A DNA stretch of 64,000 nt from Gemmatimonadota bacterium (GTDB lineage Bacteria > Gemmatimonadota > Gemmatimonadetes > Gemmatimonadales > GWC2-71-9). The DNA is taken from positions 107,473 through 171,472 of the forward strand of contig JADJAK010000005.1 in the NCBI GenBank assembly GCA_016704275.1, in the 5' to 3' direction. Made by a program: the position numbers and the translations under genes. The notes below the pieces were generated by a model that was given only the letters and a program-made list of their open reading frames with translations, searched no databases and was not told where the DNA came from. Shown piece after piece: positions 3,417 through 40,340 of this stretch (positions within the stretch are counted from its first letter, which is position 1; each line of letters begins with the position of its first letter).

Positions 3417-4942
3417 CCACCGCCGCGCCGATGGTCGCTGCGCGCCCCGGTTCCGAGCTGCTCGAGGTCGATCGGCTCGCGCCCGCGCTGACCGCCGATT
3501 GGCTGGAGCAGCACGGCATGATGCCGCTCCGGCTGGAGGGTGGCCGTCTCGAGGTCGGCAGTTGGCTGCCTGCCCCGGACCCGACCGCCCTCGATGACTT
3601 GCGGCTCCTCTTTGACGCCGATGTGGTCTTGCTCCCCTATGGTGAGCACGATCTCCGCTCGGCGATTCGTCGCGTCTACGCGCAGGACGCCACGACCGCC
3701 GAGGGGCTGATCGCGGGGCTCGTCGGCGAGCGCGGTGCCATCAACGCCGACGAGATCCCGCTCGACGACCTGGTGCACCTCGCCAACGAGGCGCCGGTCA
3801 TCAGGCTGGTGAACCTGTTGCTGATCGAAGGGCTGGAGGCGCGCGCGTCGGACGTGCACCTCGAGGGCTATCAGGACGGCCTGCGGGTGCGCTACCGGGT
3901 GGATGGGGTCCTGCAGGATGCGCCGTCGCCGCCGCCACACCTCACGGCCGCGATCATCTCCCGCATCAAGATCATGGCGGAGCTGGACATCGCCGAGCGG
4001 CGACTGCCGCAGGACGGACGGATTCGGTTGCGATTGCAGAATCGCCAGGTCGACGTCCGCGTCTCGACCGTGCCGACGCTGCGTGGCGAGAGCGTGGTGC
4101 TCCGGCTCCTCGACCGCGAGCGGGGCCGCATCTCGCTGACCGACCTCGGCATGGCGGCCGACACGCTGGCGCAGTTCACCGAGGTCATCTCCCGGCCGCA
4201 CGGCATCGTGCTCGCCACCGGCCCGACCGGGTCGGGCAAGACGACGACGCTCTACGCCGCCGTGGAGTTGATCCGCACCGGACGGGAGAAGATCCTGACC
4301 GTCGAGGATCCGGTCGAGTACGAGCTGTCCGGTGTGCCGCAGGTGCCGGTCAACGAGAAGGTCGGTGTCACCTTCGCGGGGGCGCTCCGCGCCCTGCTGC
4401 GGCAGGACCCGGACGTGATCCTCGTCGGCGAAATCCGCGATGGAGAAACCGCGCAGATTGCCACTCAGGCGGCGCTCACCGGCCACCTGGTGCTCTCCAC
4501 GCTGCACACCAACGACGCGCCGACCGCCCTGACCCGCCTCCTCGATCTGCAGGTGGCGGCCTACCTCGTGGCCTCCACGGTCGATGCCGTGCTCGCCCAA
4601 CGTCTGCTCCGACGCATCTGTCCGACCTGCCGAGCCCCGGCCCCGGAGGATGCTCGCCTGGCCAAACTGGTCGATCTCGACCGCCACGCCCTGCATACCC
4701 GTTGGCGGGGCGCGGGATGTGACGCCTGCCGAGGGACCGGCTACCTTGGTCGGGTCGGCATCTACGAGTTGCTGGTCATGGACAATGCCCTCCGGGTCGA
4801 GGTGCAGCAGCGTCGCGGCTCCGAGGAGCTGCGGGCCATGGCCATCGCGGGTGGGATGCGGACCTTGCAGGAGGACGGCTTCCGCCTGGTGCGCGACGGG
4901 GTCACCACGCTCGAGGAAGTGGTGCGCGTCGCCCGGGCCTGA
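3413..4942 (+). CDS. GspE/PilB-family type IV pilus/T2SS assembly ATPase
   Basis: 509-aa ORF with Walker A (GPTGSGKTTT), Asp box/Walker B (DPDVILVGEIRD), His box (LTGHLVLSTLHTND) and a tetracysteine motif (CPTC...CDAC). Confidence 0.92.
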   Translation: MTTAAPMVAARPGSELLEVDRLAPALTADWLEQHGMMPLRLEGGRLEVGSWLPAPDPTALDDLRLLFDADVVLLPYGEHDLRSAIRRVYAQDATTAEGLIAGLVGERGAINADEIPLDDLVHLANEAPVIRLVNLLLIEGLEARASDVHLEGYQDGLRVRYRVDGVLQDAPSPPPHLTAAIISRIKIMAELDIAERRLPQDGRIRLRLQNRQVDVRVSTVPTLRGESVVLRLLDRERGRISLTDLGMAADTLAQFTEVISRPHGIVLATGPTGSGKTTTLYAAVELIRTGREKILTVEDPVEYELSGVPQVPVNEKVGVTFAGALRALLRQDPDVILVGEIRDGETAQIATQAALTGHLVLSTLHTNDAPTALTRLLDLQVAAYLVASTVDAVLAQRLLRRICPTCRAPAPEDARLAKLVDLDRHALHTRWRGAGCDACRGTGYLGRVGIYELLVMDNALRVEVQQRRGSEELRAMAIAGGMRTLQEDGFRLVRDGVTTLEEVVRVARA

Positions 4943-6462: not shown

Positions 6463-6977
6463 CCATCAATCCGCGCGTGGCCAATCGGCAACTGCACCGA
6501 CGCGGCGCCCTCCTGGTGGCGCTGCCGTTTCTCGTGGTGGTCGTCACCGGCATCCTGCTGCAGACCAAGAAGCAGTTCGCCTGGATCCAGCCGCCCGAAC
6601 AGCGCACGGCGAACGAGGTGCCGGGCATTCCCTTCGCCGCGATCCTCGAGGCCGCCGCCAAGCATCCGCAGACCGGGATCACTGCCTGGAGCGACATCGA
6701 CCGGCTCGATGTCAGGCCCGGCAAGGGGATCATCAAGGTCATCGGCAAGAATCGCTGGGAGTTGCAGTTGGATCAGGCCACGGGTGAAGTACTGCAAGTG
6801 GCCTATCGACGCTCGGACCTCATCGAGTCACTGCACGATGGTTCGTGGTTTCATCCCAATGCCAAGCTCTTCCTCTTCCTGCCTGCCGGTGTCATCGTCC
6901 TCGGGCTCTGGCTCACCGGGGTCTATCTCTGGTGGCTGCCGATCGGTGCCCGACGGCGGAAGCGCGCGGAGGCGTGA
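6459..6977 (+). CDS. PepSY-domain membrane protein
   Basis: The internal ATG at 6459 overlaps the permease stop (ATGA). The protein has an N-terminal TM, a PepSY-like core (IDRLDVRPGKGIIKVIGKNRWELQLDQATGEVL) and a C-terminal TM. The 5' extension in the ORF track (from 6189) overlaps the permease and is rejected. Confidence 0.7.
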   Translation: MTINPRVANRQLHRRGALLVALPFLVVVVTGILLQTKKQFAWIQPPEQRTANEVPGIPFAAILEAAAKHPQTGITAWSDIDRLDVRPGKGIIKVIGKNRWELQLDQATGEVLQVAYRRSDLIESLHDGSWFHPNAKLFLFLPAGVIVLGLWLTGVYLWWLPIGARRRKRAEA

Positions 6978-6981
6978 CCCC

Positions 6982-7010
6982 TTGTGCCCGCGCGATCCAC
7001 TCCCTACGAT
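6982..7010 (+). promoter_or_regulatory. Candidate sigma70-like promoter for the lysine-operon leader (TTGTGC-17 nt-TACGAT)
   Basis: The -35-like hexamer is at 6982-6987 and the -10-like hexamer at 7005-7010, with a 17-nt spacer. This would put the transcription start a few nt before the leader ATG at 7021, giving a near-leaderless transcript. The match to consensus is weak. Confidence 0.2.
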
Positions 7011-7020
7011 TGACCGCATC

Positions 7021-7119
7021 ATGAAGCCAACGCTGCTGCAGGTGACCAAGAAGTGTGTCCCGACCCGCGCCAAGAAGTGCGCGGGTCGGGGTCACACGAC
7101 GTGGTCGGTTCCGGCGTAG
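7021..7119 (+). promoter_or_regulatory. Candidate Lys-rich leader peptide ORF (32 codons, MKPTLLQVTKKCVPTRAKKCAGRGHTTWSVPA) of a transcription attenuator
   Basis: ATG at 7021 and TAG at 7117-7119. It has 5 AAG codons in two tandem pairs (7048-7053, 7072-7077) inside a direct repeat CCAAGAAGTG. It overlaps a 12-bp stem (7059-7070 with 7079-7090) and lies upstream of a terminator and the lysine operon. Confidence 0.4.
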
Positions 7120-7148
7120 CACGCCAGTCCCGTTCCCCACTCGTGGAG

Positions 7149-7183
7149 CCCCGCCCGACTCACTGTCCGGCGGGGATTTTTTT
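7149..7183 (+). terminator. Intrinsic terminator/attenuator hairpin abutting the start codon of the lysine operon
   Basis: CCCCGCC (7149-7155) pairs with GGCGGGG (7169-7175). The stem is followed by A and then T7 (7177-7183), and the GTG start of the next gene is at 7184. Confidence 0.65.
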
Positions 7184-8194
7184 GTGACCCAACTCGATGT
7201 CGTGGAGCTGACCACACGGTTGATCAGCATTCCGTCGGTGACCGGATCGGAAGGGGCTGTCGTGACGGCCGTTGCCGTCCTGTTGGCCGACCGCGGCTGG
7301 TCGGTGCAGCGGCAGCCGCTCGACGGTGATCGCGCCAACCTCTACGCCACGCGCGGGCAGCCGGTCGTGGTGCTTTCCACCCACCTGGACACGGTGCCGC
7401 CATACCTCCCGCCCCACGAGGCAGATGGGATCCTCTTTGGTCGCGGAAGCTGTGACGCCAAGGGCCTTGCCGCCGCGATGATCGTGGCCGCGGAGCGGCT
7501 CGCCGCCGAGGGAGAGGACCGGGTGGGGCTGCTCTTCGTGGTTGGAGAGGAGAACGGTTCGGACGGGGCACTCGCCGCAGCCACGTTGACGCCGAAGGGG
7601 CGCATCCTGATCAATGGCGAGCCGACGGGGAATCGTCTCGCCACCGCGCAGAAGGGCGCACTGCGCGTGACCGTCGAGGCGCGCGGGGTGGCCGCGCATT
7701 CCGGGTACCCCGAACTCGGGCGCTCGGCGATCGACCAGCTGCTCGATGCGCTGCAACGGATTCGCGCCATCGAGTGGCCGGTCGATCCGCAGCTCGGCCC
7801 GTCGACGCTCAACATCGGCCGGGTCGTGGGGGGCGAGGCACCCAATGTGATCGCGCCGTCGGCCCGGGCCGAGTTGATGGTCCGGCTCGTCGGTTCAGGC
7901 GCGCCGATTCGGGCCGCGATCCTCGCCGCGGCGGGTCCCGACGTCGCCGTGGCGTTCCCGCTCGAAGTCCCCGCGCTCCGGTCACCATCCTTGCCCGGCT
8001 GGGAAGAGATCACGGTGGCCTTCGCCTCCGACCTGCCGCTGCTCTCGGCGTGGGGGACCGGCTATCAGCTGGGCCCCGGCACCATTCATGTCGCCCATAC
8101 CGATCACGAACAGATCCCGGTCGCCGAGTTGCGCGCCGGCGTGGACCGATACGTTGCGCTCGTACGCACCCTGCTCGCCGGCGACGCGCGATGA
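7184..8194 (+). CDS. M20-family metallohydrolase, probable succinyl-diaminopimelate desuccinylase (DapE/ArgE-like)
   Basis: The GTG at 7184 gives an N-terminus (VTQLDVVELTTRLISIPSVTGSEG) like DapE/ArgE. Metal-ligand motifs are present (STHLDTVPP, GRGSCDAKG, VVGEENGSDG, AAHSGYPELG). It is the first gene of the dap operon. The ORF-track start at 7055 would span the terminator and is rejected. Confidence 0.75.
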   Translation: MTQLDVVELTTRLISIPSVTGSEGAVVTAVAVLLADRGWSVQRQPLDGDRANLYATRGQPVVVLSTHLDTVPPYLPPHEADGILFGRGSCDAKGLAAAMIVAAERLAAEGEDRVGLLFVVGEENGSDGALAAATLTPKGRILINGEPTGNRLATAQKGALRVTVEARGVAAHSGYPELGRSAIDQLLDALQRIRAIEWPVDPQLGPSTLNIGRVVGGEAPNVIAPSARAELMVRLVGSGAPIRAAILAAAGPDVAVAFPLEVPALRSPSLPGWEEITVAFASDLPLLSAWGTGYQLGPGTIHVAHTDHEQIPVAELRAGVDRYVALVRTLLAGDAR

Positions 8195-9537
8195 TCGTCA
8201 TGAAGTTCGGGGGAACGTCCGTGGCCGATGCCCGCGCCATCACGGCGCTGGGGACGGCGGTGGCCAACGCGGCCGACCAACGGCCACTCGTCGTCGTCTC
8301 CGCGCTCTCCGGGGTGACCGATACCTTGCTCCGGCTCAGCCGCGCCGCGGCGCAGGGCGATGCCGCCGCCGTGACGAGCGGGGGTGAGGCGCTCCGCGCG
8401 CGGCATCTGGCGGTCGCCACCGACCTCGGCATCGCGGAGCAGGTGGCTGGGCCACTCTGCGCGCGGCTCGACGCGTTGTCCGCGATCCTGGGTGCCGTAC
8501 CCGCCGAGGATCAGGACGGCTGGCAGGACGCCGTGGTCGGGGTGGGCGAGCTGCTCTCGTCGGTGGTGGTGGCGGCGGCGCTGGAGAAGCGGGGGCTCCC
8601 CGCCACCTGGTTCGATGCGCGACGCGTGGTTCGCACCGATGCGCGGTACGGCGCTGCCATTCCCGATCAGGCCGCGATCCGTACGCTCGCCCACGCGCAG
8701 CTGGCGCCGTTGTTGGCCTCGGGCGCGCTCCCCGTGACGCAGGGCTTCATCGGCGCCACCGAGGCTGGTGCTGCCACCGTCCTCGGTCGCGGTGGCTCCG
8801 ACTTCTCCGCCGCGCTGTTGGGCGCTGCGCTCGAGGCCGAGCGGGTGGAGATCTGGACAGACGTGAGCGGGCTGATGACCGCCGATCCGCGGATCGTCCC
8901 GGAGGCGCTGGTGCTGGCCGAGGCGACCTACGATGAGAGCGCGGAACTCGCGGCCTTCGGCGCCAAGGTGCTGCACCCGGCGACCCAGTTGCCGCTGGTG
9001 GAAGCGGGAATCCCCATCGTGATCCGCAACACCTTCGCCCCCGAGGCACCCGGCACCCGCATCATCGCGGAGACCGAGTACGACGCCACGGTACCGATCC
9101 GGTCGATCTCTTCGAAGCGCGGGATTGCGGTCATGCAGGTCCGCGCGGCACGGATGCTCGGTGCCTTCGGTTTCCTGCGGCAGATCTTCGAGGTGTTCGA
9201 GCGCCATGAGATCGTGGTCGACGTCCTCGCCACCAGCGAGGTCTCCGTCTCGCTCACGGTCGATCCATCCCCCCGTCTGGAGGCGGTCATGCGGGACCTC
9301 GCGCCGATCGGTGAGGTCACGCTGCGCGAGGGCCGCAGCATCGTGGCCGTGGTGGGGCGTGGCATTCGGGACACGCCGGGCATTGCCGCGCGGGTGTACC
9401 AGGCGATCGCCGATGTGAACGTCGAGATGATTTCGCTCGGCGCATCGGCATCCAACTTGACCTTCATCGTGCGCGAGGAGGACGGCCCCCGCGTGGTCCG
9501 TGCCCTCCATCGCGCCTTCTTCGGGGTGCCGACGTGA
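8191..9537 (+). CDS. lysC: Aspartate kinase
   Basis: The internal ATG at 8191 overlaps the previous stop (ATGA). The N-terminus is MIVMKFGGTSVADA, followed by an amino-acid kinase fold and C-terminal ACT-like repeats. Confidence 0.9.
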   Translation: MIVMKFGGTSVADARAITALGTAVANAADQRPLVVVSALSGVTDTLLRLSRAAAQGDAAAVTSGGEALRARHLAVATDLGIAEQVAGPLCARLDALSAILGAVPAEDQDGWQDAVVGVGELLSSVVVAAALEKRGLPATWFDARRVVRTDARYGAAIPDQAAIRTLAHAQLAPLLASGALPVTQGFIGATEAGAATVLGRGGSDFSAALLGAALEAERVEIWTDVSGLMTADPRIVPEALVLAEATYDESAELAAFGAKVLHPATQLPLVEAGIPIVIRNTFAPEAPGTRIIAETEYDATVPIRSISSKRGIAVMQVRAARMLGAFGFLRQIFEVFERHEIVVDVLATSEVSVSLTVDPSPRLEAVMRDLAPIGEVTLREGRSIVAVVGRGIRDTPGIAARVYQAIADVNVEMISLGASASNLTFIVREEDGPRVVRALHRAFFGVPT

Positions 9538-10226
9538 GGATCGCGTTGATCGGGAGCGGCCGCATGGCGCAGGCCATTCGGGCGGAAGCAGAGGCGGCCG
9601 GCGAGACGGTGGTCACCACGATTGCCCGTGGCGAGAATGCAGCAGGGCAGGCCATCACTGCCGCCCGACTGACCGGCGTCGACGTGGTGTTCGAGTTCTC
9701 CACGCCCGAGGCGGTCGTCGACAACCTGCGGGCACTGCAGCCGCTCGGCCTCGCCGTGGTGTGCGGGACGACCGGCTGGGACGCTGCGCGCGAGGGGATC
9801 GAGGCGTCGTGGCGAGATGGCCCCGGCGCCTTGCTGGCCGCCAGCAACTTTGCAATCGGCGTTCACCTCTTCCTCCATGCCGCACGCGTGCTCGCGAGTG
9901 CGTCGGCGGGTCAGGCGGCCTTCGACGGCTTTCTCCACGAACGCCACCACGCGGCCAAGCGTGATGCCCCGTCGGGCACGGGACTCCGCTTGCAGGAGGC
10001 GGCACGCGCGGGCGACCCGACGCGCGACTGGCCCATCACCTCGGTGCGGGCCGGCTCGATCCCGGGCGAGCACGAGCTGGTGCTCGATGCGCCATACGAA
10101 TCGATCACGCTGCGGCATGTGGCGCGGGATCGTCGCGTCTTCGCGGCAGGGGCCGTGACCGCCGGCCGATGGTTGCGTGGCCGACGCGGTGTGTTCACGC
10201 TGGATGCACTCTTCGAGGAGGGTTGA
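9534..10226 (+). CDS. dapB: 4-hydroxy-tetrahydrodipicolinate reductase
   Basis: 230-aa ORF with N-terminus MRIALIGSGRMAQ and the motifs ERHHAAKRDAPSGTG and GEHELVL. Confidence 0.85.
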   Translation: MRIALIGSGRMAQAIRAEAEAAGETVVTTIARGENAAGQAITAARLTGVDVVFEFSTPEAVVDNLRALQPLGLAVVCGTTGWDAAREGIEASWRDGPGALLAASNFAIGVHLFLHAARVLASASAGQAAFDGFLHERHHAAKRDAPSGTGLRLQEAARAGDPTRDWPITSVRAGSIPGEHELVLDAPYESITLRHVARDRRVFAAGAVTAGRWLRGRRGVFTLDALFEEG

Positions 10227-10228
10227 TC

Positions 10229-11119
10229 ATGCTCCCGAACGGAACCGGTACGGCGATCGTCACGCCCTTCAGTCCTCAGGGCGACGTCGACCATGAGGCG
10301 CTGGCGCAGCTGGTCGACTGGCAGATCGAGGAAGGGGTGGACTTCCTCGTGGCCTGTGGCAGCACGGGAGAGGCCGCGACGCTCTCGTTGGACGAACGAT
10401 TGGCCGTGACGGCCACCGTCGTGCGCTCCGCGGCCGGTCGTGTCCCCGTCCTCGCAGGCGCGACTGACAATGCCACCGCCCGAGCCGTCGATGAGGCGCA
10501 GGCGCAGGCCGCCATGGGTGTCGCCGGCATCATGAGTGCTGCCCCGTATTACAACAAGCCGACACAGGCCGGCCTCGAAGCACACTTCCGCGCCATCGCC
10601 GACGCCATCCACCTCCCGCTGCTGTTGTACAATGTCCCCGGACGGACCGGGGTCGATCTGCGTCCGGAGACGGTGGCCCGCCTCGCAGAGCATCCCCGGA
10701 TTGGAGGCATCAAGGAGGCGAGTGGCGGCGTGCGCCGGGTGATGGACCTGGTGGCCCAGACGCCGAGTGCCTTCGCGGTGCTGTGCGGTGATGACGACAT
10801 CGTCGTCCCGGCGATCGCGTCTGGTGCACGGGGCCTCATCTCGGTGGCGAGCAACGCCTTGCCCCGGACGATCGCCACAATCGTCCGGCATGCGCGCGCG
10901 GGCGACTTCGTCACCGCGCGTGCCGACCTGCTTCCGCTCCTCCCCTTCATCGACCTGCTCTTCACCGAAGCGAACCCGATTCCGGTGAAGGCCGCGCTGG
11001 CGATGCAGGGGCGCATCAGTGACACCGTGCGCCTCCCGCTCCTGTCGGCCACCGCTCCGCTCCGTGAGCGCATGGCGCCCTTTCTCCCGATGTCCTCTCG
11101 CCTTGGAGTCTCTGCGTGA
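10229..11119 (+). CDS. dapA: 4-hydroxy-tetrahydrodipicolinate synthase
   Basis: The ATG at 10229 gives MLPNGTGTAIVTPF. The motifs GSTGEAATLS, YNVPGRTG and GIKEASG (catalytic Lys) are present. Confidence 0.92.
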   Translation: MLPNGTGTAIVTPFSPQGDVDHEALAQLVDWQIEEGVDFLVACGSTGEAATLSLDERLAVTATVVRSAAGRVPVLAGATDNATARAVDEAQAQAAMGVAGIMSAAPYYNKPTQAGLEAHFRAIADAIHLPLLLYNVPGRTGVDLRPETVARLAEHPRIGGIKEASGGVRRVMDLVAQTPSAFAVLCGDDDIVVPAIASGARGLISVASNALPRTIATIVRHARAGDFVTARADLLPLLPFIDLLFTEANPIPVKAALAMQGRISDTVRLPLLSATAPLRERMAPFLPMSSRLGVSA

Positions 11120-11952
11120 ATTCTCTCGAAACCCGGCTCGCCCCGTTCCTGGACCAGGTTCCACCCGGGCGCGAGGACGAGGCGCGCCGCGCCTTCGCCT
11201 CCCTCAAGCTGGCGCTGCACCAGGGGACGATCCGTGCCGCTGAGCGCGACGCCGATGGGACCTGGCGCGTCAACGGCTGGGTCAAGCGCGGCATCCTGCT
11301 CGGCTTCCGCCTTGGCGTGCTCGTCGACGCGGGCACGGCGGGGCCGATGCGGTTCTTCGACAAGGACAGCTTCGGCGTCCGCGCGACGACCATCGACGAA
11401 GGGATCCGCATCGTGCCAGGCGGCACCGCGGTGCGTGAGGGCAGCTACCTCGCGCGCGGCGTGATCGTGGTGCCGCCCGCCTACGTGAACGTCGGCGCGT
11501 ATGTCGACGAGGGGACGCTGATCGATTCGCACGCGCTCGTCGGCTCCTGTGCGCAGATCGGCAAGCGCGTGCACCTCTCGGCGGCAGCCCAGATCGGTGG
11601 CGTGCTTGAGCCGGCCGGGGCGATGCCGGTCATCATCGAGGACGACGTGCTGGTGGGAGGGAACTGTGGGGTGTACGAGGGGACGATCGTGCGGCAGCGT
11701 GCGGTGCTCGCCCCCGGTGTGCTCCTGACGGGCGGGACGGCGGTGGTGGACCTGGTCCACGACCGGATCCTGCGGCGTGAGGGCGACTCGCCGCTGGAGA
11801 TTCCGGAAGGGGCCGTCGTGGTGCCGGGCAGCCGGTCGGTGACCCACGGGAGCGGGCAGGCGCGCGGGATCTCGCTGTACGCGCCCGTGATCGTCAAGTA
11901 CCGCGACGAGCGCACCGACGCGGCGGTGCAGCTCGAAGACTTGATCCGCTAG
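11116..11952 (+). CDS. dapD: 2,3,4,5-tetrahydropyridine-2,6-dicarboxylate N-succinyltransferase
   Basis: 278-aa ORF with hexapeptide-repeat LbH core. YVNVGAYVDEGTLIDSHALVGSCAQIGKRVHLSAAAQIGGVLEP closely parallels E. coli DapD as I recall it. Confidence 0.9.
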   Translation: MNSLETRLAPFLDQVPPGREDEARRAFASLKLALHQGTIRAAERDADGTWRVNGWVKRGILLGFRLGVLVDAGTAGPMRFFDKDSFGVRATTIDEGIRIVPGGTAVREGSYLARGVIVVPPAYVNVGAYVDEGTLIDSHALVGSCAQIGKRVHLSAAAQIGGVLEPAGAMPVIIEDDVLVGGNCGVYEGTIVRQRAVLAPGVLLTGGTAVVDLVHDRILRREGDSPLEIPEGAVVVPGSRSVTHGSGQARGISLYAPVIVKYRDERTDAAVQLEDLIR

Positions 11953-12986
11953 AAACCGAGCTTGGTGATTCGGCCGCCGGGGCCGACGCCCCAGGCGGTC
12001 CGGCCCACGCCGCCCACGCTCCAGTACTGGCTGGGGGTGGCAGCCGTCCAGGTGACGCCGGCGTCACGGGTCACCAGCAGTCCGGCGAGCGTCGCGGCGA
12101 CGGCGGTGTTGCGATCGGCCCCGGGCACCCACGACACCCCGAAGAACGAGCCGCGCACGGCGGGGCGGGGGCGCATGGTCCAGGTCGCGCCGCCATCATC
12201 GGTCACGCCCACCACCGCCGAGGCGGTGTCAGTGCGCATCTGGGCAATGCGTGCGCCGACGCCGATCCCGCGCTTGGCGTCGAGCCACGAGGTCGCCGTC
12301 ATCCCGGCGCCGTCACCCTTCACGAAGGGCGTCGGCACCGGCTTCCACTGCTTGCCGCCGTCGGTCGTGACCAGGAGGCGCCCTTCCGGCGCGCCGGTGG
12401 CCACCCAGGCGTTCGACTTCCCCTGACTCACCAGGCAGCCGCCGCTCGCGGCGAAGGCGCCCTCACTCGCCAGCGGCGCGGGGAGGGCGTTGGCAGGGAG
12501 CAGGTTCCACGACGCGCCGCCGTTCTCGGTTCGCATCATCATGGTGCGGCCGTTGGCCGCGTCGCTGAAGGCCACGCCGTGCTTCGTGTCGAAGAAGGTG
12601 AAGCAATCGAAGAACGCCGCAGTGTCCGCGTTGGTGAACTGCAGCGTCCACTGTGCGCCACCATCGGTGGTGTGGTAGATCCGCGACTTGGCCCCCGGTC
12701 CGGCGGCCAGCAACCATGCCTCCTCGGCACTGAACGCATGCACGTCGCGGAACTCCATCGTCTCCGCGCCGGGCACCGCCTTCAGTTCCCAGGTCGTGCC
12801 GCCGTCGCGCGTCCGCAGGACCGTTCCCTTGTGGCCGCTGACCCACGCGACCTGTTCGTTCACGGCCGCCACCGCCTGCAGCAGGGCAGTGGTCCCGCTC
12901 GTCTGCTCGGTGACGACCGGGGCCTGAGCCGCGAGGGCGGCCGGAACCAACGCGACGACGACGGCGAAACGACGCATGCGAATCAC
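11949..12986 (-). CDS. BNR/Asp-box repeat beta-propeller protein (Ycf48/sialidase-like), secreted
   Basis: 345-aa ORF with a signal peptide (AVVVALVPAALAAQA) and repeated S-x-D-x-G-x-T-W type motifs (TRDGGTTWE, TTDGGAQWT, TENGGASWN, TTDGGKQWK, TDDGGATWT, TRDAGVTWT). Confidence 0.8.
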   Translation of the reverse strand: MIRMRRFAVVVALVPAALAAQAPVVTEQTSGTTALLQAVAAVNEQVAWVSGHKGTVLRTRDGGTTWELKAVPGAETMEFRDVHAFSAEEAWLLAAGPGAKSRIYHTTDGGAQWTLQFTNADTAAFFDCFTFFDTKHGVAFSDAANGRTMMMRTENGGASWNLLPANALPAPLASEGAFAASGGCLVSQGKSNAWVATGAPEGRLLVTTDGGKQWKPVPTPFVKGDGAGMTATSWLDAKRGIGVGARIAQMRTDTASAVVGVTDDGGATWTMRPRPAVRGSFFGVSWVPGADRNTAVAATLAGLLVTRDAGVTWTAATPSQYWSVGGVGRTAWGVGPGGRITKLGF

Positions 12987-40222: not shown

Positions 40223-40254
40223 GCGACCCGCCGCCCAATGGGGCGGCGGGTCGC
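40223..40254. terminator. 14-bp perfect GC-rich hairpin between the convergent ftsB-like gene and tRNA-Met (probable bidirectional terminator)
   Basis: GCGACCCGCCGCCC-AATG-GGGCGGCGGGTCGC. On the minus strand it is followed by TTCGTTTGG. On the plus strand the T tract is weak (TCTGTCGT). Confidence 0.55.
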
Positions 40255-40266
40255 TCTGTCGTGGAG

Positions 40267-40340
40267 TAGCAGGGGCGGGACTCGAACCCGCGACCCCGGC
40301 ATTATGAGTGCCGTGCTCTAACCAGCTGAGCTACCCTGCC
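40267..40340 (-). tRNA. tRNA-Met (anticodon CAU), elongator type
   Basis: A 74-nt cloverleaf was read by hand: GGCAGGG-TA-GCTC-AGCTGGTTA-GAGC-A-CGGCA-CTCATAA-TGCCG-GGGTC-GCGGG-TTCGAGT-CCCGC-CCCTGCT-A. It resembles E. coli metT. CCA is not encoded. Confidence 0.9.

Follow-up and report, generated by a model that had tools for sequence, protein, structure and literature searches.

The locus described here raises the question of how a bacterial lysine operon could be adjusted to the supply of its end product. In a stretch of 64,000 nucleotides (nt) from a Gemmatimonadota bacterium (assembly GCA_016704275.1, contig JADJAK010000005.1), referred to below as the window, a five-gene operon of the diaminopimelate (DAP) pathway, dapE-like–lysC–dapB–dapA–dapD, begins with a GTG codon at position 7184. 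The gap between this codon and the stop codon of a PepSY gene upstream (6977) contains a short open reading frame (ORF) rich in lysine codons and a set of alternative RNA hairpins. The preliminary description of the stretch had taken this gap for a lysine-codon attenuator of the operon, and a conserved promoter, ORF, lysine codons, antiterminator and terminator now support that proposal. We consider it likely, though well short of certain, that the element is a ribosome-mediated transcription attenuator which senses lysyl-tRNA and controls the DAP-pathway lysine operon. This reading is built on sequence comparison and modelled RNA folding, from which we infer that the ORF is translated, where transcription starts, that it ends at the T-run and that it responds to lysine. 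The Gemmatimonadales that carry such a leader probably sense lysine by ribosome stalling and not by a lysine riboswitch. The source genome belongs to this order, which is poorly studied and abundant in soil; its GC content is 69% and its proteins contain about 1% lysine.

The leader ORF and its hairpins in the window

The leader ORF is located at positions 7021–7119 of the plus strand. As read from the sequence, it consists of 32 codons and a stop (ATG at 7021, TAG at 7117–7119) and encodes MKPTLLQVTKKCVPTRAKKCAGRGHTTWSVPA. Five of the 32 codons specify lysine, and four of these form two tandem AAG AAG pairs, each held in one copy of the direct repeat CCAAGAAGTG (7046–7055 and 7070–7079). The first pair (7048–7053) lies directly 5' of segment 1 of the hairpins described below, overlapping its start, and in the alignment it is kept in the whole window clade (the window and loci L001–L005). 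The second pair (7072–7077) is placed in the loop of helix 1:2 and abuts the 5' end of the antiterminator strand. The fifth lysine codon, AAG at 7024, is not conserved. The positions previously assigned to the ORF, the AAG pairs, the repeats, the helices, the terminator and the GTG all agree with the sequence, and so does the reported scarcity of lysine: the 509-residue PilB-like protein contains 5 lysines, the five operon proteins contain 1–5 each, and the background over 2,592 residues is 1.0%. From base composition, the probability of at least five lysines in 31 codons is 3e-5. Just one of the 192 other ATG-initiated ORFs of 20–60 codons in the window has at least four; this frame of 45 codons and 5 lysines (12541–12678, plus strand) runs antisense within a minus-strand gene (11949–12986), and its lysine richness is probably a matter of chance.

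A sigma70-like promoter has been identified at 6982–7010 of the plus strand, between the PepSY stop codon and the leader, with a -35 element TTGTGC (6982–6987), a 17-nt spacer and a -10 element TACGAT (7005–7010). It ends 10 nt before the leader ATG, so that the 5' untranslated region (UTR) would amount to a few nucleotides at most. The rule applied (TTGnnn-N16-18-TAnnnT, followed by ATG within 15 nt) has a single match on both strands of the 64-kb window, namely this site; a stricter built-in promoter rule found no promoter. The leader frame stays open in the 5' direction as far as an ATG at 6709, giving a 136-codon ORF (6709–7119, plus strand) that overlaps the PepSY gene, which is read in a different frame. 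It is therefore the position of the promoter, and not the first ATG to follow a stop, that sets the limits of the 32-codon ORF, and ORF finders will not list this ORF separately.

Folding of 6978–7200 with RNAfold gives a minimum free energy (MFE) of -93.9 kcal/mol (z = -3.2); all 200 shuffled sequences fold less well. The MFE structure contains two of the three elements of the proposed switch: the helix 1:2 hairpin and the terminator hairpin. Helix 1:2, a putative anti-antiterminator and possibly a pause hairpin, had been drawn by hand as a pairing of 7059–7070 with 7079–7090; RNAfold extends it to 7044–7106 of the plus strand (-44.9 kcal/mol), with a core of 7053–7070 paired with 7079–7096 and an extended stem of 7044–7048 paired with 7102–7106.

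The third element, the antiterminator, becomes the MFE structure once segment 1 is masked. A pairing of this kind had been predicted; the nine-pair helix then drawn is in fact the base region of a long imperfect hairpin spanning 7076–7165 of the plus strand (-51.1 kcal/mol). At its base, 7076–7092 pairs with 7148–7164, which comprises the entire 5' arm and loop of the terminator; inner helices join 7095–7104 with 7137–7145 and 7113–7117 with 7121–7125, and the UAG stop codon of the leader (7117–7119) is found at the apical loop.

The intrinsic terminator (7149–7183, plus strand) is formed by pairing of 7149–7155 with 7169–7175, to which three further pairs (7157–7159 with 7165–7167) can be added to those first described. 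It has a loop at 7160–7164, an A at 7176 and seven T residues at 7177–7183, directly before the GTG, and an energy of -20.8 kcal/mol (span 7148–7176). A simple built-in terminator scan missed it, probably on account of the interrupted stem. The arrangement expected of an attenuator is thus present: the antiterminator uses the 5' arm of the terminator and extends into the leader ORF, and the terminator sits between that ORF and the first structural gene.

Conservation of the leader across Gemmatimonadales

A search with the M20 protein encoded by the first gene of the operon yielded 80 loci at 54–88% identity, all from Gemmatimonadales or from Gemmatimonadota metagenome-assembled genomes (MAGs), of which 78 were usable. 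In 55 of the 78 the promoter is followed by an ATG opening an ORF of 15–43 codons, and 53 of these 55 ORFs contain lysine. The ATG follows the -10 hexamer at a distance of 6 nt in 28 loci, of 7 nt in another 10, and of 5–10 nt in 54 of the 55; in many families conservation of the -10 region extends past the hexamer, the sequence reading CCTAGCTTAC. It is therefore predicted that most of the genomes make a leaderless mRNA, starting with AUG. About nine additional loci, recognized by eye and by a wider search, have the same kind of ORF behind a 5' UTR of 28–36 nt. With a single exception, the leader-bearing loci have a CCCCGCC...GGCGGGG hairpin, many with a T-run, 16–30 nt after the ORF stop codon, and a CCCGCC...GGCGGG hairpin just upstream of the M20 gene on the plus strand was read from the listed positions in about 62 of the 80 loci. 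An uncultured Gemmatimonas MAG likewise carries a leader, MRCAAMTKTMKTKAPKPGGRGGCLVE, together with the hairpin.

The same promoter, ORF and hairpin analysis was applied, as a negative control, to about 30 loci with a homologous M20 gene from Acidobacteriota, Verrucomicrobiota, KSB1 and Dormibacterota; a single stray promoter/ORF match turned up, and the hairpin was not seen. When whole genomes were scanned with the conserved motif at the ORF end, each Gemmatimonadales genome had one copy; the motif also matched unrelated taxa, which was assumed to be chance. The upstream neighbour is a PepSY gene in the window, L001 and L002 only, and other genes in the other loci; the neighbour varies, and the leader is retained with the operon. 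In L004 two tRNA genes (1833–1923 and 3612–3698, minus strand) are found upstream of the leader.

Where the leader is missing, the M20 gene is mostly fused behind a gene for an MFS-like membrane protein. Within the upstream 300 nt, no leader was seen in L009, L011, L024, L031, L036, L042 and L043, in which the M20 gene follows the MFS-like gene by 0–60 nt. The operon consists of M20–dapD alone in L024, L031, L042 and L043, and L009 has the longer lysC–dapB–dapA form. Three other loci (L050, at about 3840–3975, L066 and L069) show the promoter and a GAGCCCTGCCGCGCC...GGCGGGGCGC hairpin before M20 and no leader ORF starting with ATG; the space between promoter and hairpin holds a short A-rich motif that is conserved, AAAAGTACG, and in L069 a GTG-initiated frame crosses the hairpin and ends at a TAA overlapping the M20 ATG.

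The leader peptides fall into about 20 families with unrelated N-termini, orthologues of the window ORF being those of L001–L005. Examples are ...TKRTKKPMTARGERRPV, ...SKRTKATTPVSGERRPV, MTPCMTALLKRRSRGGRPPA, ...GLKRVRGHWSTRGPA, MGLKPCITKQPTRGACRPV, MAPSGNPKSKRGKKSVGGLRSA and MRCAAMTKTMKTKAPK.... Codon statistics were obtained from 18 representatives of peptide families, whose ORFs had been chosen by promoter, ATG and stop and not by lysine content, so that lysine enrichment is independent evidence for AAG being selected as a codon. Lysine makes up 41 of 505 residues (8.1%) against the background of 1.0%, an 8.4-fold enrichment (p = 1e-24), and AAR triplets number 41 in the ORF frame as compared with 3 and 2 in the remaining two. 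Where the aligned leaders differ in internal length, they do so by multiples of three. These features answer one of the checks suggested at the outset, as short ORFs with in-frame lysine codons, together with compensatory changes in the helices, are found in related genomes.

The 3' third of the ORF behaves differently from the N-terminal part, whose peptide sequence is not conserved: it is conserved in nucleotides, synonymous sites included, and the arginine codon CGA is kept throughout the 3' block without ever being exchanged for a synonymous codon. The conserved C-terminus is best read, from these alignments, as reflecting a constraint on the RNA and not a function of the peptide. A conserved small protein was considered and ruled out by the unrelated N-termini and the RNA-level conservation of the 3' part.

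To locate the antiterminator, the stretch between the last lysine codon and the end of the terminator loop was folded for each family, 13 nt being masked to represent the ribosome. Most of 26 representatives form one long imperfect hairpin that carries the stop codon at its tip or close to it, and in which the remaining ORF supplies the 5' strand and the terminator 5' arm the 3' strand. In the alignment of these 26 sequences the base helix of the antiterminator is 86% paired and 4 of its 11 pairs show compensatory change; none of 500 shuffles reaches its covariation score, and slid controls are at most 52% paired. Unconstrained MFE folds of whole leaders were too noisy for this purpose, and RNAalifold on a shortened alignment gave a weak consensus only. 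The terminator core hardly varies, even between genomes with only 55% identity in the adjacent protein, which would be unusual for a plain terminator and is what one arm fitting two partners would be expected to produce.

The spacing of the lysine codons relative to the antiterminator is also non-random. With the antiterminator strand taken from a duplex defined without reference to lysine, a lysine codon lies 6–21 nt before the strand in 12 of the 18 families, 6.0 being expected (p = 0.003, permutation); this distance corresponds to about one ribosome leading edge. This definition replaced a first measure, the distance from the last lysine to the antiterminator, in which the lysine position had also fixed the limits of the fold, making it partly circular.

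The three-helix layout originally proposed stands for the window clade, where the alignment of helix 1:2 has 91% of its cells paired and five pairs altered on both sides (slid controls at most 50%). It does not extend to most relatives, which possess the antiterminator and terminator alone.

The proposed switch and its alternatives

The effect of ribosome position was modelled by masking the ribosome footprint codon by codon along the window leader and computing the probability of the terminator. With the ribosome at codons 1–10 this probability is at least 0.87; it falls to about 0 only for A-site codons 11–17 (to codon 18 in a downstream-only model) and is back to at least 0.9 beyond this permissive zone, the stop codon included. 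Codons 11–18 run from the second lysine of the first pair to the first lysine of the second pair. Antitermination by a ribosome stalled at the first lysine pair, as had been suggested, agrees with these folds, in which the terminator probability is about 0 with the A site at 7051. For the second pair, the downstream-only model gives 0.0 at A site 7072 and 0.5–0.8 at 7075, and the footprint-mask model 0.99 and 0.90, respectively. According to these models the first pair would be the best-placed stall site, as a ribosome there covers segment 1 and leaves 7076–7096 free; the second pair would stand at the distal edge of the permissive zone.

The following sequence of events may be proposed. Transcription would begin at the leader AUG or a few nucleotides before it, and a ribosome would load on the (nearly) leaderless mRNA and trail the polymerase. 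When lysyl-tRNA is ample, the ribosome would cross the 3' half of the ORF, which is the 5' strand of the antiterminator, and melt that structure; 7149–7159 would then pair with 7165–7175, and transcription would end at the T7 run, one nucleotide before the GTG. When lysyl-tRNA is scarce, the ribosome would stall at AAG codons just upstream of the antiterminator strand, the 7076–7092/7148–7164 helix would form first, the terminator would be blocked and the operon transcribed. In the window, a stall at 7048–7053 would in addition mask segment 1 of helix 1:2. The window clade has a classical four-segment layout (1:2, 2:3 and 3:4), and most other Gemmatimonadales only an antiterminator and a terminator. 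The models also predict that an untranslated leader would default to read-through where helix 1:2 is missing and to termination where it is present, as in the window.

Several observations weigh against this interpretation. The relatives are MAGs throughout, about one fifth of the first 78 loci lack any leader, and several families have a single lysine codon. In the window, a ribosome stalled at the second lysine pair would cover part of the antiterminator strand. The complementarity between the 3' part of the ORF and the terminator arm averages z = -1.5 across the 18 families, and within individual families it often does not exceed that of dinucleotide shuffles of these GC-rich sequences. The terminator of many families is stable enough to be predicted by equilibrium folding at any ribosome position: the masked-ribosome probabilities are clean for the closest relatives of the window and uninformative elsewhere, where stems of 10–14 GC-rich base pairs always win, and the choice there must therefore be kinetic. 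When the 3' arm is omitted from the fold, the terminator 5' arm is paired to the ORF while the ribosome is at or before the last lysine, and this pairing decays 1–4 codons past it. Some families have a weak T-run and a hairpin abutting the start codon. Finally, threonine is 2.2-fold enriched in the leaders of the 18 families and clusters beside lysine, and the leader of locus L020, MTETLGLLMCGQTITTTLTCGEGRLV, has a run of threonines and no lysine at all.

The threonine codons give rise to the alternative that survives best, although we judge it unlikely: a leader-peptide attenuator whose signal is not lysine alone, be it lysine and threonine together, as end products of the aspartate pathway, or the general speed of translation. 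Threonine accounts for 20.8% of residues within three codons of a lysine, as against 11.1% elsewhere in the leaders (p = 0.006) and 6.2% in the background, and typical motifs combine the two (TKRTKKP, TKTMKTK, KTITATLT); the specificity may therefore extend beyond lysine. The threonine-rich lineage has the same promoter, ORF and terminator scaffold (L020:2575–2716, L023:3833–3975, L030:302–443 and L039). The relatives of L020 carry ..MCRKTITATLTHGEGRLV with one lysine (RKTITATLTH); the operon of the lineage has the form M20–asd–dapB–dapA–dapD, and the lineage may represent a regulatory codon switch from lysine to threonine. A translated ORF with threonine and lysine codons in Sinorhizobium meliloti has likewise been suggested as a leader (PMC10117765).

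The gene content of the operon bears on both sides of this alternative. In the window, all genes being on the plus strand and assigned by Pfam, it consists of an M20 ArgE/DapE-family deacylase (7184–8194, GTG start), lysC (8191–9537), dapB (9534–10226), dapA (about 10229–11119) and dapD (11116–11952; NCBIfam 293 bits, cut-off 204). The M20 protein falls under every NCBIfam equivalog cut-off, and its dapE label is given by context only. Three operon forms occur: M20–lysC–dapB–dapA–dapD in the window clade, M20–asd–lysC–dapB–dapA, and M20–asd–dapB–dapA–dapD. The products of asd, present in most operons, and of lysC, present in many, serve the synthesis of lysine, threonine and methionine, as a lysine–threonine signal would lead one to expect. 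On the other side, dapB, dapA and dapD are specific to lysine, the aspartokinase of the window is matched to the lysine-sensitive type (473.8 bits with the NCBIfam model lysine-sensitive aspartokinase 3, whose cut-off is 455), the enrichment of lysine, at 8.4-fold, is far stronger than that of threonine, and the window leader has just two threonine codons (T9 and T15) in or next to the permissive stall zone.

A broader version, which we also judge unlikely, would see in these elements an undescribed, order-wide family of leaderless and mostly two-hairpin attenuators that read lysine and threonine codons together and are retuned by codon swaps. If true, such leaders would be a transcriptional counterpart of the concerted feedback of lysine and threonine on the aspartate pathway, the threonine-only leader of L020 would be an example of retuning, and the translating ribosome itself would melt the antiterminator.

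It is quite improbable that the short ORF instead controls translation of the first gene, with the GGCGGGG arm sequestering its ribosome-binding site, or that termination is factor-dependent. The Shine-Dalgarno-like sequence GGGGA (7172–7176, plus strand) does lie within the 3' arm of the window terminator, as noted earlier, with the GTG of the M20 gene downstream; it is the sole such sequence in the window leader, and judging from its position a role in translation is possible. The M20 homologues of L001–L005 similarly start directly after the terminator. In several families the hairpin ends 0–2 nt before the projected first query residue, the real start lying about 9–13 nt after it, and those with a start-adjacent hairpin have a weak T-run, e.g. 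GGCGGGGTTGTTTGCTCATG. The window terminator, however, has a perfect T7 run, and many families combine a strong T-run with a hairpin 25–117 nt from the gene start, too far for sequestration of the binding site.

Still less credence is given to a switch made of RNA only, i.e. a lysine riboswitch of a new kind, or a leader bound by a protein or by tRNA, in which the ORF is incidental. It would accord with the strong nucleotide conservation of the ORF 3' part at synonymous positions and with the usual control of lysine genes by riboswitches (PMC1262725). Covariance-model searches speak against it: at the Rfam gathering score, the window and 15 related loci gave only tRNAs, with no match to Lysine (RF00168) or T-box (RF00230), and at E-values up to 10 the region 6900–7300 gave chance sub-threshold matches only (sX13, miRNAs, HCV CRE). 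The earlier remark that the motifs of the lysine riboswitch (L-box) are missing agrees with the failure of the Lysine model to match anywhere in the window. The 5' half of the leader is conserved neither in sequence nor in structure, and no candidate aptamer is seen apart from the alternative hairpins. The ATG, moreover, is fixed beside the promoter, the spacing of stop codon and terminator is constant, and the 41:3:2 distribution of AAR triplets and the length differences in multiples of three follow the reading frame. The sole Rfam hit in the window is a tRNA gene (40267–40340, minus strand), which adjoins another CCCGCC...GGCGGG hairpin at 40227–40250 (plus strand).

The fallback once offered, a PepSY gene terminator with a chance hairpin and a chance ORF, finds its support in the position of the element directly downstream of the PepSY stop codon and is contradicted by the comparative data, as the promoter separates that stop codon from the ORF, PepSY adjoins only in the three closest genomes, and the leader, with its conserved ORF and lysine codons and its nearly invariant terminator stem, is kept with the operon in dozens of others. 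A macrolide-type arrest leader with +X+ (K/R-X-K/R) motifs was also considered and rejected, the downstream genes being biosynthetic.

Relation to known attenuators and riboswitches

The reading of the element as a ribosome-mediated attenuator leaves the concept of attenuation unchanged, its logic following classical attenuation by leader peptides. In enterobacteria, the attenuators of the trp, his, thr, leu, pheA and ilv operons (Rfam Trp_leader, His_leader, Thr_leader, Leu_leader and Phe_leader) similarly combine an ORF rich in codons for the end product, the regulatory ones being placed at the 5' edge of segment 1; 1:2, 2:3 and 3:4 helices that exclude one another; and a terminator just before the first structural gene. 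The Gemmatimonadales leader differs from them in several respects: (i) it has no sequence or covariance-model similarity to them, and its amino acid is lysine; (ii) transcription is predicted to begin at or beside the first codon of its ORF, which has no Shine-Dalgarno sequence; (iii) most members lack helix 1:2 and have a long antiterminator hairpin with the stop codon at its tip.

A lysine leader-peptide attenuator was reportedly shown experimentally by Tsubouchi et al. in 2005 for the alpha-aminoadipate (AAA) lysine cluster of Thermus thermophilus, which is said to share with the present element the lysine codons in a short leader ORF and transcription attenuation. As far as a comparison by description goes, it belongs to another phylum, to the AAA and not the DAP pathway, and to other genes. 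In view of this case, the statement that a lysine-specific leader attenuator is not an established class appears too strong, and the Gemmatimonadales leader would be a new family and not a new class.

Lysine biosynthesis is a textbook case of riboswitch control; here, a whole order would use a ribosome-stalling leader instead. The lysine riboswitch (L-box, RF00168) also controls lysC, dapA and other lysine genes, often through a choice between terminator and antiterminator. It binds lysine directly by means of a large five-helix aptamer, whereas the Gemmatimonadales element would require translation of its ORF and has no covariance match. In a comparative survey, lysine was found under riboswitches, and attenuators were assigned to histidine, threonine, phenylalanine, tryptophan and the branched-chain amino acids only (PMC1262725). 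In the literature searched, no description of attenuators in Gemmatimonadetes, or of lysine leader peptides, was found.

What is new is the phylum, the sequence family and the DAP-pathway operon as target; the start is predicted to be leaderless, and the layout of most members is a minimal one with two hairpins. The element would add to the known cis-regulatory families one that is absent from Rfam, and gives annotators a rule for a recurrent unannotated small ORF (sORF). It also offers a natural series for the study of attenuator evolution, with one to five lysine codons, with or without helix 1:2, and with a threonine variant.

Two further systems are comparable at the level of the sORF. In S. 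meliloti, the translated sORF SEP5, with 6 threonine and 3 lysine codons, lies upstream of aspartate dehydrogenase and has been suggested as a leader peptide (PMC10117765). The clustering of threonine and lysine codons before an aspartate-family gene is common to both; SEP5 remains a suggestion confined to Sinorhizobium, its downstream gene is a different one, and the passage on it describes no terminator/antiterminator analysis. In mycobacteria, leaderless polycysteine sORF attenuators sense the supply of cysteine and control the downstream operon (bioRxiv 10.1101/834739). Here, too, a leaderless sORF forms the first cistron, and the codons of one amino acid sense its supply for the operon concerned. 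The mycobacterial sORFs differ in the amino acid, cysteine and not lysine, and in the phylum, and the comparison made here concerns sensing by the sORF. With respect to this group, the Gemmatimonadales leader would represent a further case of a leaderless sORF amino-acid sensor, outside Actinobacteria.

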